Positions 2,454 through 20,571 of a stretch of DNA of 64,000 nt are shown in pieces (positions within the stretch are counted from its first letter, which is position 1; every line of letters starts with the position of its first letter). Under the pieces are notes generated by a model. It did no database searches. It was not told the DNA's origin and worked only from the letters and a program-made list of their open reading frames with translations. The stretch comes from a virus (taxonomy: Duplodnaviria > Heunggongvirae > Uroviricota > Caudoviricetes): positions 87,474 to 151,473 of the IMG/VR virus record IMGVR_UViG_3300013104_000019. One strand, written 5' to 3'. The position numbers were made by a program, and so were the translations under genes.

Positions 2454-4676
2454 ATGTCATCTCTGACTCTTTTCCGCAACAAGGCCCCGAAGACGCAAGC
2501 GGCTCTGACGGCGCTCGACACGTTCGTCTCCAGTCTGAAGACCGAGATCGACGGCGCTGGTGGCCGTTTCAAGAACGCTGAAGTTGGCCGCGCTGCCGTG
2601 TCGATGGAATCGTTCAACGATGTGGTCGCAGGCGAGATCAACGACGTCGTCGAAGGTCTGGAAATGTCGCTGGAAAGCATCCTCGGCTCGATGGACATGC
2701 ACCGTCAGTCGAAGGAACATCCGGACGGCATCAACTCGGTCCAGTTCGAAGCCGCTGTCGCCGCCGGTATCATGGCGTCGAACGTCGAAGCCTCGCTCAG
2801 CACCTCGTACTCGGCCGAATCGCTGCGCGTGCAGCCGGACAGCGCGTACCGTACGACGAAGATCATGAACGTCCACGTCTCGGACGGCGTCGAGAAGCGC
2901 CTGGCGCTCGAAGCGTACGACGAGAAGGACAACAAGAACGCGATGGTCTATTCCGTCGCGTACAACATGCAAGCGGCCAAGCAGGACGCGTTCGCTGAAA
3001 TGTTCTTCCCGACGATCATCGTCACGCCCGACCAGGTCGGCTTCACGATGTCGATCCGCCTGATCAACGTCTACAACGAAGTCCGTCGCGACATCAGCGG
3101 CAAGAAGTCCGACAACTTCGGCAAGCGCAACATCGTCCAGGCCGTGATCGACCCGACGATCCTGCGCAACGACACGACCCGCATCTACCCGGTCGTGCGT
3201 CCGGATTCGCAGGACAAGTTCGTCGCTTCGGCGCTGGTCGCACCGCGCAACATCACGCTGGACGACGGCCAAGTCGTGACGACCGCTCCGCTGGCGATGC
3301 AAACGGACCTGTCGCTGCTCGGCCTGTCGCAAACCGACGCGCTGCTCCAGACCGGCATCCTGGACTCGACCGACGCAATCGACACGGCCATCGGCCTCGA
3401 CAACCTGTACCTGCAAGTCGGCACGGGCTCGTCGGCCGAAGTGTTCAAGTTCGCAACGCGCCGTCTGCCGCTGGCGACGTTCAACTACGCACCGCAAGGC
3501 AACTACCGCACGATGCTGCTGAACTTCAGCACGCAATCGCTGAAGCTCGATGGCAACTCGACGAAGGTCGACGGTTCGACCTCGACGGCGCTGGCCATCC
3601 TGAAGACCGGCAACTACACGGTCCGCCTCGGCACGTACGTGTCGGGTCAGGTGAACTGCGAACTCGGCGACACGAACCTGATGGCCTCGAAGGTCGCAGT
3701 GGTGTCGGTGCGCAACGCCGACGGCGAAGCACTCGATCTGACGACCGGCGACGGCAAGACGATCTCGGATCTGTTCGCAACCGCATCGTTCATCGGTTAC
3801 GATCTGGAAGCACGCCGCACGAACAGCAACCGTCGCGAACGCGGCCAGCTGCTCGACACGACGTTCTACAACCAGGTCTACGCCGTGCCGCTGCGTGCGC
3901 CGATCACGATCCCGCGTCCGCTGACGATCGGTGACGCGAACGATTCGAGCGACCTGGCTGCGCTGATCACCGCGACGCACGTCCGTACGACGAACGCCGC
4001 GATCGACACGCTGCTCGAAGCCGCGAACGTGCTGGAAGCTTACGGCAACAACCTCGACCCGCTGGGTACGGTGCCGGACATCCTCGGCGTGACGCGCTTC
4101 CTCGTGAAGCCGTTCTTCGAGCGCACCACGATCGACGTGGCGGCTGTGATGAACAACCTCAAGTCCTCGGATCGCCCGATGGACCTGAGCGCGGTCATCG
4201 TGAACTACATCCGCGACGTGGTGTACCGCATGTACACGGCATCGGGCTACAAGGCTGCTGCCGACGCGCTGGCTGGTGGCATCGGGCCGGTTCCGACCGT
4301 CATCATCGGCACGGACCCGACGATCGCTCGCTACATCAACGTGACGGGCGACCTGCGTACGCTGGGCGGTTCGTTCAACGTGCGTGTCGAGTCGACGCTG
4401 AACACGAACATGGCAGGCAAGATCGTCATCTCGTTCGGCGAGTTCGGTACGGGCAAGGAAGGTGTGCCCAACCCGATGCACTTCGGCAACATGGCATGGA
4501 AGCCGGAACTCACGCTCGTGCTGCCGCTGCACCGCAACGGCGCGAACAGCAAGGAACTCACGGTTCAGCCGTCGTTCCTGCACGTCGTGAACCTGCCGGT
4601 CATGGCGATGTTCGACGTGGTCAACCTGTCGGCTGCTGCAACCGACAAGATCGCTGTGGATTTCCACACGGTCTGA
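2454..4676 (+). CDS. major capsid protein precursor (phiKZ gp120-like)
   Basis: 740 aa with very strong C/G-ending codon bias. Family-like segments include LEAYDEKDNKNAMVYSVAYN, QDAFAEMFFPTIIVTPDQ, RTNSNRRERGQLLD and QPSFLHVVNLPV. Confidence 0.92.
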   Translation: MSSLTLFRNKAPKTQAALTALDTFVSSLKTEIDGAGGRFKNAEVGRAAVSMESFNDVVAGEINDVVEGLEMSLESILGSMDMHRQSKEHPDGINSVQFEAAVAAGIMASNVEASLSTSYSAESLRVQPDSAYRTTKIMNVHVSDGVEKRLALEAYDEKDNKNAMVYSVAYNMQAAKQDAFAEMFFPTIIVTPDQVGFTMSIRLINVYNEVRRDISGKKSDNFGKRNIVQAVIDPTILRNDTTRIYPVVRPDSQDKFVASALVAPRNITLDDGQVVTTAPLAMQTDLSLLGLSQTDALLQTGILDSTDAIDTAIGLDNLYLQVGTGSSAEVFKFATRRLPLATFNYAPQGNYRTMLLNFSTQSLKLDGNSTKVDGSTSTALAILKTGNYTVRLGTYVSGQVNCELGDTNLMASKVAVVSVRNADGEALDLTTGDGKTISDLFATASFIGYDLEARRTNSNRRERGQLLDTTFYNQVYAVPLRAPITIPRPLTIGDANDSSDLAALITATHVRTTNAAIDTLLEAANVLEAYGNNLDPLGTVPDILGVTRFLVKPFFERTTIDVAAVMNNLKSSDRPMDLSAVIVNYIRDVVYRMYTASGYKAAADALAGGIGPVPTVIIGTDPTIARYINVTGDLRTLGGSFNVRVESTLNTNMAGKIVISFGEFGTGKEGVPNPMHFGNMAWKPELTLVLPLHRNGANSKELTVQPSFLHVVNLPVMAMFDVVNLSAAATDKIAVDFHTV

Positions 4677-4678
4677 AC

Positions 4679-4800
4679 GCAGGGCATGGTGAGCGTGCAT
4701 GACCTCAGCGGCTTTCGGCCGTACTCGGGGTAGTTGATCGGGGAATGAGGTCGTCTGGGTAGGAAACTGCCCAGCCACGTTCACCCGAGCCATGCAGTGC
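4679..4800 (+). ncRNA. candidate structured RNA element in the MCP 3' region
   Basis: Hand-folded nested stems: 4684-4689/4790-4795, 4690-4697/4776-4783, 4699-4707/4746-4754, hairpin 4708-4722, and GAAA-tetraloop hairpin 4755-4774. Also complementarity 4724-4729/4784-4789. Confidence 0.55.
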
Positions 4801-4879
4801 CGATCCTGGATTCTTACGAATTCCCTGTAGTTCTGTTGTAAATGCAATTCGCGTTGCATCGTAGTCCACTTGTAGTACC

Positions 4880-4915
4880 GCCCCTTTCCGGGAAACCGGA
4901 AAGGGGCTTTATGCC
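4880..4915 (+). terminator. GC-rich hairpin terminator after MCP, followed by TATGCC
   Basis: GCCCCTTTCCGG-GAAA-CCGGAAAGGGGC perfect 12-bp stem, then TTTATGCC. Confidence 0.8.
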
Positions 4916-4933: not shown

Positions 4934-4956
4934 AAAAATAAACATATATCATCTCC
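4934..4956 (+). promoter_or_regulatory. candidate phage promoter motif AAAAATA..ACATAT(AT)CATCT
   Basis: AT-rich motif upstream of the 5011 gene, with a similar copy at 43587-43609. Confidence 0.4.
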
Positions 4957-5010: not shown

Positions 5011-6162
5011 ATGACTTCTTCCGCTCAGATCGAGGTGCCGTCTGTCTGGGGTGAGCCCAACATCAGTACAGATGGCGTGTTGAAAACCGCCAAGCACAAG
5101 AAGTATTTTGAGGTGAGGACAGCACCACTGAACTTCACCTCCCAAGATCTGACCATAGGCTATCGGAATGGGCTAAAGATTAACTTACCGAAGCAGTGGG
5201 ATCCGGATCACCAATCGCAGCTCGTCGTCAGAACTGAGTTGATCATCTCCAACTTAGTAGAAATTAACCTGAACCATCTATTAAGTGTGGTGGACGAGCA
5301 ATGTTCATCGGAGATGAAGCTGATCAAAGCCAAGATCCAGCTTCCAGACTCCAGCAACCCGTATCGGAGGGAATTCGAAAGTACGATTATTACCTTGGAC
5401 TACTCGATCTCGATTCCAGAGCTGAAGAGCTTTGGCGGGAGCGTGTACTTCCACGATCTGGATCTGATGATCAGTCAGTTACCGGTGGAGGAAGCACCGG
5501 ATCATCCGTATTCAGAACGCGGCATGGCAAGGCAGCAGTGCATCGATGTGAACCGACATCATAACCGCTTTGGCTTCTCGATTGAGATCGTGGACAATCA
5601 GGGCGTAATTGGGGAACGGTACATCAATGTCGGTGGACAGGTTTCACGGATTCCAGCAACCGTCAACTTCAAGAAGATGGACGGCATCTACATCAGCTGG
5701 AATCAATCAGTCAAGGGCAGGCTGGATAAGCCCGATACTCAGGTGCGTTGCTTTGAGCCGGCAATTGCCGACGCAGAGTTCAGGCTCTTTAAAACCTATG
5801 GCGAAGCACTAAGCTATGGGAATGGCGATGAAGCCAGGAAGAAAGAGCTTGCAGACATCGAGTTTCAGACTGCAAGTATCAAGGCAAGAGCAGCGGCTGA
5901 GAAAGCCGAGCTAGATCGGAAGAATCAACAATTGGATTTCGACCTGAAGCAACTTCAGCATCAGTTCGATATGTTGAAGGCAGAGCGGGATGAAATCCTC
6001 AGTCAACAATCTCATCGCATGGAGATCGAGAAACAGAAGATACGAGACTATTACGAAAGTAGGTCCTACGATCGCAAGGACAGCAGTGAAGTAGTAAAGT
6101 TCCTTCCCGCCATCATCACTGGCGTCGGAGCAATTATACTGGCGATCAAAGCGTTTTTCTGA
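5011..6162 (+). CDS. conserved hypothetical protein with C-terminal coiled coil and hydrophobic tail
   Basis: 383 aa. Heptad-rich region from ARKKELADIEF to IRDYYE, and terminal FLPAIITGVGAIILAIKAFF. Confidence 0.8.
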   Translation: MTSSAQIEVPSVWGEPNISTDGVLKTAKHKKYFEVRTAPLNFTSQDLTIGYRNGLKINLPKQWDPDHQSQLVVRTELIISNLVEINLNHLLSVVDEQCSSEMKLIKAKIQLPDSSNPYRREFESTIITLDYSISIPELKSFGGSVYFHDLDLMISQLPVEEAPDHPYSERGMARQQCIDVNRHHNRFGFSIEIVDNQGVIGERYINVGGQVSRIPATVNFKKMDGIYISWNQSVKGRLDKPDTQVRCFEPAIADAEFRLFKTYGEALSYGNGDEARKKELADIEFQTASIKARAAAEKAELDRKNQQLDFDLKQLQHQFDMLKAERDEILSQQSHRMEIEKQKIRDYYESRSYDRKDSSEVVKFLPAIITGVGAIILAIKAFF

Positions 6163-14021: not shown

Positions 14022-16412
14022 ATGGCTTCAACCAACTTCTACGACCTGTATATTCAATCTGTGGTGCAGCTGGCTGAGACTATCGTCATCAAATCAGCTG
14101 ACACGGCGGATGGACTCAACCAATATGTCATCGAACAGAAGGGCGGGAGTGTGAACACGCTCGACCCGACTACGTGGAAGTACTACCTAAACATCACGGG
14201 TGAGTACCATTCCACGGATACGATGATGACCGTGACCTCAATGGATACCTTGGAGCAAATTAATTTCACCAAGGAAAACCTGAAAACTCATTTGGCCACG
14301 GCAAAGGGCTATCAGTACGGTACGCGTAGCTACCAAGAACTGGTGGCTCGCTATCCGGATCAAGAGCTGCTGATTCTCGGCGTTCTTTATCCGGCCGACA
14401 TGACCATGGCGGTTGAATCACCCGATGGGACGATTCTTGCCTACCCGCCCAATCTCGTTGAGGCAAACGAGTACTCCCTGATCGACAAGCTCCAAAACTG
14501 GATCTATTCGTACAAGGGTCGCTGGATCAATGTGCAGTACAGTATTTCTGATCCGCTGTACTCGTTTGTCCACCACGGGATCATGTACCTGATGCTGTTG
14601 TTGCAGATTCTGGGCTATCGCTTGGAAGCCTGCAAAACCAACGAAGCGCATTCGTACCATGTACGGATGTATCTCGCTTCGCATCAAGGACTCGATCAGT
14701 ACCTCGATTTCATGACGACGAAACAGGCACTCTGGTTCTACCGGAATATCTGTTACATCGAGCGCAACACAGGGCAGCGCCAGATTTTCGATTTGCTCCT
14801 TGAGCATATCATGACCGAGCGCAATTTGCCGCTGGCTGAATACCTGATGAAGCATGACATCAGTAAGATGCCGGACGACATGGACCCGACCGTGACGTTT
14901 GTTCGCACGCCGCTTAACATCGGCAATGTGGACTCCAACAACGTCGTCGATCTGGACCAGATGCTGACGAAGGAACAAGGCATCGCACGGGACAACGCAG
15001 CGTACCAAGGCGATTACGAGCCGCTGATTCTGGAGAAGATGCGGAACTCCAAGTCCAGTACCCTGATGTCGAAAGCATTGTCGTCGGAGATGGTGGACTA
15101 TTCGAATAGCTCCCCGTACACGCTCTCTGACATTTTGCTCAACCATTGGCTGTGGTTGGCCAGCAAAGGCTCGTACAGCGCGTTCGTTAGCGCCACCAAT
15201 CCGCAAACGGGAGAAGCTATTCCCATTTCGGTCAAGGACGCATGGACGCTCATGTGGTATTGCTGGATGGGCTCGAATGGGATCGATCTGTCCAAGTCGG
15301 TGATTCCGGCGATGTTTGCGCAGCGCGTGCAACGCATCCCGACTCCGACGACCACGGATCTGCTGAGCGTAGTTGATCCGAAACTCGTGGATGTGACGAT
15401 CGCACAGAAGGCGCTTTCCATGCAGCCTTCGATTGTGCCGATCCTCTCAACCGAAGCGTTTTACGAGACGTGCGTGCAGATCACCGCAGCTGCAAACATG
15501 CAGCTTAATCTGGTTGCTTTCATGGAGCACAAGGATCGTCGTGCTTACGTGGAAGGCATGGTCGAGCGGATCTATTCGGATAACGTCGTCTACACGGCTC
15601 CTCCGGATCAGACCTACGCAAGCTGGTTCTCAGAGCGTAACCTGAACCTGTCGACTTTCAGCAATGACCAGTTGAATCTGCTCTATCTGGACCTCGTGAA
15701 GAAAGCCACTGGTCTGGATCTCATCAATTCGCAAAGCTTGGCTGCACTGCAAGCAGCGATGGTGAGCATGTTCAAGCGGTTGTCAAGCTATTCGGTGCAG
15801 TTCCTCGCCAAGATCAACTCCAGTCCGATCCGCATGGTCAACTGGCCGATCGTTCGTGTAGGGGACGTGAAGGGTAGTGGCTCAGCTGAGTACTACATGC
15901 CCGACAACACCGTTGACGTGATGGATGAAACTGTCAAAGGCTCAGCCCTTTGGGAAGTGGATATCAATCACCCGCAACCGCGAGAGAACTACCTGTTCAA
16001 GATGCATGTGGCAGAGCAGATTGAATTGACTGCAAAACCGCATCTGGGTCAAAACGCAGTGCAATACAACTACAACGTGAAGTCCGTAGTTGGTGTAAAG
16101 CTTTCGACCCCGCTGCAACCCAACGACGTCGGTGTCATTCCGGTTGTAGGGACAGACGCATGGCTTGCCTTGCCGCCTGAAGAGCGCTATCAGTTTGCTG
16201 ATGTGTGGCGTAATAACAATTACTACTACACTCCGCCGCCTGAAGAGCCGCTCGATGTGGCTATCTTCCGTCAGACCTTGAATGGCTTGACGTGGATTGA
16301 TCGCACGCCTCCCCGGTTTGCGACGACAACCGATCTCGATGGCTTAGCCGCCTACGATGCCCGGATGTTGACGTTGTCTGATTTGGATGGTTTCAAAGAA
16401 CTAAATCAGTGA
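14022..16412 (+). CDS. virion structural protein, probable baseplate (phiKZ gp128-like)
   Basis: 796 aa with WKYYLNITGEY, MTVTSMDTLEQINFTKENL and KTNEAHSYHVRMYLASH segments. Divergent from the portal gene. Confidence 0.75.
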   Translation: MASTNFYDLYIQSVVQLAETIVIKSADTADGLNQYVIEQKGGSVNTLDPTTWKYYLNITGEYHSTDTMMTVTSMDTLEQINFTKENLKTHLATAKGYQYGTRSYQELVARYPDQELLILGVLYPADMTMAVESPDGTILAYPPNLVEANEYSLIDKLQNWIYSYKGRWINVQYSISDPLYSFVHHGIMYLMLLLQILGYRLEACKTNEAHSYHVRMYLASHQGLDQYLDFMTTKQALWFYRNICYIERNTGQRQIFDLLLEHIMTERNLPLAEYLMKHDISKMPDDMDPTVTFVRTPLNIGNVDSNNVVDLDQMLTKEQGIARDNAAYQGDYEPLILEKMRNSKSSTLMSKALSSEMVDYSNSSPYTLSDILLNHWLWLASKGSYSAFVSATNPQTGEAIPISVKDAWTLMWYCWMGSNGIDLSKSVIPAMFAQRVQRIPTPTTTDLLSVVDPKLVDVTIAQKALSMQPSIVPILSTEAFYETCVQITAAANMQLNLVAFMEHKDRRAYVEGMVERIYSDNVVYTAPPDQTYASWFSERNLNLSTFSNDQLNLLYLDLVKKATGLDLINSQSLAALQAAMVSMFKRLSSYSVQFLAKINSSPIRMVNWPIVRVGDVKGSGSAEYYMPDNTVDVMDETVKGSALWEVDINHPQPRENYLFKMHVAEQIELTAKPHLGQNAVQYNYNVKSVVGVKLSTPLQPNDVGVIPVVGTDAWLALPPEERYQFADVWRNNNYYYTPPPEEPLDVAIFRQTLNGLTWIDRTPPRFATTTDLDGLAAYDARMLTLSDLDGFKELNQ

Positions 16413-20049: not shown

Positions 20050-20571
20050 CTAAACAACAGTTTCAGTAAAACCCGGTAAAACAGTAGCTTGCAGTTGTGA
20101 CAGATCGAACTCAATCGGCAACGTGACTTGATCTTGCCATGCCAAGGAGTTCGGATTGGCTTGCAAGACAAACGACGCATCCTGCGGTGTACACTGACGA
20201 TCGACGATGTCGGTGATATCCAGATTGATGCCGTAAGTGGCGTTGATCTGGGGCAGGATTTGACTGAGTGAAAAGTCTTGCGGAGGCAACACAATCGCCG
20301 CAGAATTGACGGGATTCAGCTGGCTCAAGAAAAGACGCCGATAGAACAGCGTTTTCTGGCCCGTATCGCCGCTACAGCGGCCTTGCAGCATGCTGACCAC
20401 TACTTGGGTATCACTCTGATTGGAATCGCCCGGTAGGGGCGTATAATGCGTCGGAGTGCCGAAGACGGCATCCTTGGGTAAATGAAACCCGTTGGTGAAG
20501 TAGACGAGGTCTCGAATGTACTGCTCTGAGGTCGTGGGAGTTTTCTGGGCGGGGTAGGAAGTCAGTCGCAT
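20050..20571 (-). CDS. putative virion/baseplate protein
   Basis: 173 aa with DTQVVVS..LFYRRLFL..ILPQINATYGINLD..VLQANPNSLAW. This resembles a repeated domain type of phiKZ-like tail proteins. Confidence 0.6.
   Translation of the reverse strand: MRLTSYPAQKTPTTSEQYIRDLVYFTNGFHLPKDAVFGTPTHYTPLPGDSNQSDTQVVVSMLQGRCSGDTGQKTLFYRRLFLSQLNPVNSAAIVLPPQDFSLSQILPQINATYGINLDITDIVDRQCTPQDASFVLQANPNSLAWQDQVTLPIEFDLSQLQATVLPGFTETVV

Follow-up and report, generated by a model that had tools for sequence, protein, structure and literature searches.

A candidate stop-codon readthrough cassette at the 3' end of the major capsid gene of a phiKZ-like jumbo phage

What is the role of the extensively paired RNA that begins directly behind the stop codon of a jumbo-phage capsid gene? 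An earlier note on a 64,000-nucleotide stretch of phage DNA (here called the window, whose positions we use throughout, on the plus strand unless stated otherwise) had described a multibranch fold with a possible pseudoknot or kissing interaction at 4679-4800, and had suggested an abundant processed noncoding RNA, a ribozyme or a 3' stabiliser. The window comes from the incomplete, 159 kb genome (G000) of a phiKZ-like jumbo phage whose closest cultured relative is Burkholderia phage FLC9, with 55% capsid identity. The gene preceding the fold (2454-4676, 740 aa, TGA stop) encodes a major capsid protein of the phiKZ gp120 family (Pfam PF25620, E 1e-192; PDB matches include phiKZ gp120, 8y6v). 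The terminator-like hairpin that had been noticed further downstream proved to be a phage-type terminator at 4880-4914 that consists of a hairpin and TTTATGC; terminators of this type stand at many gene ends genome-wide, and the position of this one would place the fold within the 3' part of the capsid mRNA. For comparison, we collected about 106 capsid 3' ends from relatives (numbered L), with 85 representatives, all below 90% identity, serving for stop-codon counts.

The fold and the codons it overlaps

The predicted folding energy of 4679-4800 is -60.9 kcal/mol (z -4.13), and none of 200 shuffled controls, a check that the earlier note had named, folded as well; energies as low occur in three of 91 sampled 122-nt segments of the 64 kb. 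The reverse strand reaches only -43.0 kcal/mol, about 18 weaker than the plus strand, and because it is so much weaker the G-U pairs point to a plus-strand RNA, which backs the original claim of an RNA rather than a DNA structure. Every arm that had been listed is in place, and 4784-89 is indeed the exact reverse complement of 4724-29. The multibranch fold resolves into a three-way junction. Its basal stem joins 4683-85 to 4789-91 and continues as a 10-bp helix, 4688-97/4776-85 (pair probabilities 0.6-1.0), beginning 6-7 nt after the stop, or at +10 or +11 counted from the first base of the stop. Helix 2 (4699-4707/4746-54) encloses a hairpin at 4708-22 and a second one, 4724-28/4738-42 (probability about 0.73), which surrounds the second in-frame stop discussed below. 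Helix 3 (4755-4774) is a hairpin, free in sequence and length, that is present in close relatives and in L041, L099 and L116. Position 4775 is C in the window and A in the near-identical L002 and L023, where the A restores a pair and lengthens the helix 3 hairpin by two bp.

Among 11 sequences aligned by MAFFT, with some distant arms misplaced, the structure pairs 87% of alignment cells versus 34-45% when slid, and 14 cells changed on both sides versus 6.4 in shuffles, a count uncorrected for kinship; the covariation that had been proposed as a check is therefore present, on the plus strand. In the 10-bp basal stem 92.7% of cells are paired and four of the ten pairs changed on both sides. In the helix 2 region (4699-4754) 76.7% and 87.3% of cells are paired, the 3' arm being lost in L046. 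When arms were swapped among sequences, the test was significant overall (p 0.0035), with a sequence's own partner fitting best in only four of 11 columns. The same three-way junction is predicted from different sequence in L099 (47% capsid identity) and in L041 and L116 (42%). The form of the fold varies by clade, being a simple long hairpin at the same place in the FLC9 group and weak in Goslar. The element occurs once in its genome; an exact 24-nt pattern search of viral contigs returned two loci, both already known, and blastn against GenBank phages gave chance matches only. The earlier failure to match a known family was repeated with Rfam, which contained no match over 4679-4800 at E values up to 10 and nothing relevant over the window and 16 loci.

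Two features of the earlier model fared less uniformly. Its outer helix, 4684-89/4790-95, opens a 6-nt bulge at 4784-89; it is pairable, is paired in 84.8% of cells (93.9% for the minimum-energy register) and contains two pairs changed on both sides, so that both outer registers have comparative support, but it has a probability below 1% in the nested ensemble, which favours 4683-85/4789-91 with the 10-bp stem. This form amounts to -52.0 versus -60.7 kcal/mol, and competing would take almost all of the -9.4 kcal/mol of the kissing helix. The kissing interaction itself, 4724-29 with 4784-89, can form all six pairs in the window, L002, L046, L001 and L152, and five of six, by inspection, in L047, with one position showing a G-C, G-U, A-U series across this closest clade; only members of the clade with at least 80% capsid identity keep it intact, it is broken at 76% and below, and it pairs in 74% of cells. 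The G-U change is equally explained by a continuous stem, and one of the arms codes for Y-S-G and can pair locally. The kissing pair may represent a possible alternative form of the fold.

The fold overlaps a reading frame that the earlier note overlooked. From 4677 to 4730 the capsid frame is open, such that the proposed leaky stop (UGA followed by A, 4674-4677) leads into 18 codons (TQGMVSVHDLSGFRPYSG, 4677-4733 with the second stop, TAG). The frame is kept, and the length mostly kept, in relatives at 42-100% identity, in which a V-x-V-x-D-L-x-G-F pattern recurs. Using a motif rule that was fixed after viewing the data and that takes in the phiKZ-type E-[DN]-G motif, we found a motif-bearing extension after 20 of 24 TGA stops and after none of 61 TAA or TAG stops among the 85 representatives (Fisher p 8e-16, ignoring kinship). 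A FastTree tree, which carried long-branch warnings, requires 12 or more changes of the trait; of the independent pairs, whose counts also carry relatedness, about six point in the same direction and none in the opposite one (median p 0.03). The stop is TGA in every extension-bearing relative; three TGA-T genes all lack the extension, and the larger set includes seven TGA genes without the motif. Two sister genomes are L036, with a 19-codon extension, and L034, in which TGA is followed by two codons and a stop, resembling a decayed copy.

Substitutions within the extension follow the codons. The pN/pS ratio is 0.47 in frame (0.27 for core codons 4-13) versus 1.08 and 1.35 off frame; codon positions 1 and 2 are invariant and third positions vary most, and in the fold's 5' half the changes fall on every third base in the clade of 64-100% identity. 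Synonymous differences amount to 0.375 in the extension and 0.28 in the capsid body, and since synonymous sites are as free as in the capsid body, selection acts on the peptide rather than on the RNA sequence. Codons 1-3 never contain a stop or an indel in 16 aligned rows. In six distant capsids the L-x-G-[LF] motif stands in frame before TAA with no intervening stop (L068, L070, L074, L066, L135 and L142; LucasX, Proteus phage 10, SA002, RAY and two viral contigs), so that every subunit would bear the motif. In L137 a 203-codon in-frame extension (L137:3406-4014) follows the capsid TGA, and Pfam recognises an Ig-like domain of type Big_2 in it (E 4e-9); the closest relatives of L137 have TAA as stop and no extension. 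To judge from these comparisons, the 18 codons behind the UGA are shown to be selected as protein in the capsid frame, and the covariation shows, at the same comparative level, that the non-coding 3' half of the fold pairs back on the extension codons and tracks their changes.

Readthrough of the capsid stop and the role of the fold

Our data are best explained by the element acting in cis within the capsid mRNA as a programmed readthrough cassette. Programmed UGA readthrough of the capsid stop is, we believe, very likely, and the conjunction of three steps, protein-selected codons, UGA readthrough and a 3' half that pairs back on these codons, is still likely. With high probability, a few percent of ribosomes would decode the UGA by means of a host near-cognate tRNA (Trp or Cys), the tRNAs to which UGA readthrough in E. 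coli has been attributed (PMC5373646), and the product would be a minority capsid subunit 19 residues longer. AlphaFold2 modelled the readthrough form with a pTM of 0.38 and a pLDDT below 50 for the tail, values too low to be informative. Genome-wide recoding of TGA was considered and rejected, as the gene endings obtained with translation table 11 argue against it: TGA still ends 27 of 86 long ORFs in a crude set (the portal-like, wedge and 5011-6162 genes included). In several relatives the second stop is itself TGA, and no suppressor tRNA with a TCA anticodon was found in six genomes, three of which (G000-G002) are incomplete.

The closest parallel is phage Qbeta, in which a UGA that ends the main capsid cistron, in a UGA-A-C context, is read through by host bacterial ribosomes to give a minor longer subunit, A1 (PMC13517186). 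The present case differs in that Qbeta is an RNA phage with no downstream structure determined, while here a tailed DNA jumbo phage has 18 codons and a covarying fold. The A1 addition is a folded domain some 200 aa in length. A resemblance of another kind exists to the stimulators of alphaviruses (VEEV, SINV, CHIKV), Colorado tick fever virus and MoMLV, which are likewise extended or forked stems with distant closing arms, are 50-180 nt long and, on the count used above, start at +9 to +16 (PMC13517186). Unlike those elements, which act on eukaryotic ribosomes, were reporter-tested and usually have both arms coding, the candidate stimulator described here is a predicted fold and has a non-coding 3' arm. 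Fixed minorities of capsid subunits with C-terminal appendages, often Ig-like, are produced by frameshifting in T7 and T3 (gene 10B), Lactobacillus phage A2 and Listeria phages A118, A500 and PSA (PMC5009743). The proposed arrangement shares the minority appendage, and L137 the Ig-like domain behind its TGA, but those phages change frame, and here the stop would be crossed in frame.

Does the fold stimulate readthrough? With the UGA in the A site, the basal stem would meet the mRNA entrance of the ribosome, delay termination by RF2 and set the readthrough rate; we give this step, and with it stimulation by the fold, an even chance. The start of the stem at +10/+11 falls inside the viral range, a range that applies to eukaryotic ribosomes. 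Pairing at +7 to +21 distinguishes the TGA group from TAA-ending genes overall (p 0.004), but not from GC-matched ones (0.74 vs 0.73, p 0.38), indicating that structure behind a capsid stop is common without readthrough, and it is because of this equality that we place stimulation no higher. The strongest alternative, to which we assign somewhat less than an even chance, keeps the three steps and replaces the stimulator: readthrough would follow from the UGA context alone, and the fold would only shield an abundant mRNA at its 3' end, covarying of necessity because it overlaps codons. The equally structured GC-rich TAA-ending relatives fit this alternative, as does Qbeta, which has no determined stimulator and whose UGA-ACU context is the same as in Goslar, 201phi2-1 and L152 (PMC13517186). 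Against it, a strong terminator hairpin already caps the capsid mRNA, at 42-47% identity the junction still sits at the same position with respect to the stop, and the close relatives L049, L050 and L053 have lost fold and extension together.

The earlier interpretation stands as regards a conserved, covarying RNA structure on the plus strand, for which a role as 3' stabiliser is possible, and is not supported as regards a separate noncoding RNA, ribozyme or prohead RNA analogue, as the 5' half is constrained as protein and L049, L050 and L053 have lost the fold along with the extension. A processed free RNA (pRNA-like, ribozyme or sRNA) in which the loop-bulge pair drives oligomers would be consistent with the stability of the fold, the graded series in the kissing pair of the closest clade and the double-sided changes in the outer helix. 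We nevertheless regard it as very unlikely: the conserved bases are those of codon positions 1 and 2, the kissing pair does not extend to relatives at 76% identity or less and each of its arms can be accounted for otherwise, the element is absent from most of the family, and Rfam, the pRNA model included, gave no match. No promoter-like motif was seen upstream of the element. The phi29 prohead RNA is transcribed separately and has two interlocking loops; the fold described here shares with it a three-way junction and possibly a similarly sized pairing between loop and bulge, but lies within the capsid mRNA, overlaps codons and does not match the curated pRNA model or conserve the interlocking pair. 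The ribozyme idea is not supported either: the order of helices recalls HDV, but neither a P3/L3 nor a P1.1 pair could be seen by inspection.

A separate micro-protein of 15 residues, re-initiated at the ATG at 4686 by coupling to the capsid stop, is just as improbable. That codon, the fourth of the extension, is ATG in the window, L046 and L001 and TTG in the FLC9 group, but CTG, TTA or TGG in other relatives, leaving the extension with no conserved start; moreover, frame and distance to the stop are strict, the extension is restricted to TGA, and neither the in-frame fusion in six capsids nor the Ig-like domain behind the L137 TGA fits such a product. Least probable of all, to the point of being negligible, is a bacterial SECIS element with UGA as selenocysteine, which would share the layout of a stem-loop directly behind an in-frame UGA (PMC7026636), but for which no TCA-anticodon tRNA was found in the six genomes and no homologue with Cys at the site was seen, the site being the end of a Thr/Pro-rich linker and the apical loop varying freely.

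A putative docking tag for head fibres

If the capsid UGA is read through, what would the longer subunits do? The tail resembles the linker that follows the head domain in the DUF7941 fibre proteins of Chimalliviridae (Goslar gp22/gp23, phiKZ gp126/gp127). In the Goslar study the DUF7941 linker is predicted to dock on the next head domain, and gp22 filaments are shown (10.64898/2026.04.21.720040). We propose that the capsid tail would copy this head-to-tail docking linker and that fibres would start from the long subunits at the capsid surface, and put both this step and the identity of the extension as a fibre-docking tag only slightly short of an even chance. Our proposal departs from the model of that study, in which six baseplate anchors are proposed and the words "stop codon" do not occur (10.64898/2026.04.21.720040); a capsid anchor would be an addition made here.

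Within the window, the tail (16275-16412) of a baseplate wedge gene (14022-16412, a PHIKZ128 homologue) carries tandem copies of a D-L-D-G-[LF] motif, with related repeats in the wedge tails of LucasX, PCH45, RAY and G003, and a DUF7941 gene on the minus strand (20050-20571; PF25613, E 2e-21) ends in an L-x-G-F motif. It is one of about 13 DUF7941 paralogues in the incomplete genome, most of them in one cluster (G000:C1:52-17677), in which L-x-G-[FL] directly follows the head domain. The same motif appears in the C-terminus, D-L-S-G-F-P-M, of a 161-codon ORF at G000:C1:62581-63066. Correspondences also occur within individual phages: the capsid extension and a short DUF7941 protein of Goslar share DNVADGF, those of RP31 have IGN and GFNE in common, and a DUF7941 tail of FLC9 ends in LGGFTPY, resembling that phage's own capsid extension. 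A profile built from the G000 DUF7941 and wedge tails alone, for what is a short motif, ranked 15 of the 20 extensions higher than any of 100 controls; the three phiKZ-type extensions matched neither this profile nor the DUF7941 stretches inspected for 201phi2-1. Complex prediction in which the wedge tail stood in for the 18-residue capsid tail against a DUF7941 head domain gave no verdict (score 0.00) and counts neither for nor against binding. The C-terminal arm of the Goslar capsid protein forms the hexon centre, and that of phiKZ contacts the outer protein gp244 at pentons (PMC11297242).

Relatives would then represent three states: no tag, a tag on a minority of subunits behind UGA, and a tag on all subunits in frame. 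In the fullest version of this scheme, which we consider rather unlikely as a whole, a structured RNA would tune UGA readthrough on bacterial ribosomes in a tailed DNA phage and so set how many of the ~1,600 capsid subunits carry a tag from which DUF7941 host-sensing fibres start on the head, with the two outer registers, one of which frees the kissing pair, acting as a switch. In tailed phages, frameshifting is the known route to capsid extensions; for stop-codon readthrough in the capsids of Chimalliviridae the open-access literature yielded no paper, and, SECIS aside, we know of no tested example in which a 3' stem stimulates readthrough by bacterial ribosomes. The present stem offers natural compensatory variants. 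The Goslar virion has been assigned over 2,500 DUF7941 copies on six assumed anchors (10.64898/2026.04.21.720040), which implies filaments of 3 microns; tens of capsid anchors, if true, would shorten them. For the cultured phages Goslar, 201phi2-1, PCH45, RP31 and FLC9, existing spectra can be searched again.

Neighbouring elements 3' of the capsid gene

Between the fold and the terminator lies a small hairpin with a UUCGCG loop (4842-4859), which is kept in L046, L047 and L152 while its flanks diverge and is a possible protein-binding site. A different small hairpin, with a UUGGG loop, recurs directly before the terminator and no more than 130 nt from the capsid stop, whether this is TGA or TAA (L006, L007, L017, L025, L031, L034, L041 and L003). 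The UCGGG loop of the window was rejected as a homologue of this hairpin of distant relatives, because the latter lies past the extension and UCGGG belongs to Ser-Gly codons. In FLC9 (L017:4710-4900), and also in L006, L007 and L011, a second conserved structured block lies between two terminators 3' of the capsid gene; its GGCAAC motif recalls SAM-I riboswitches, and it had no Rfam match at the gathering score. Past the terminator of the window, at 4936-4953, an A-rich run followed by CATATATCATC resembles a phiKZ early promoter ahead of the operon that starts at 5011, and the element is similar in most relatives.
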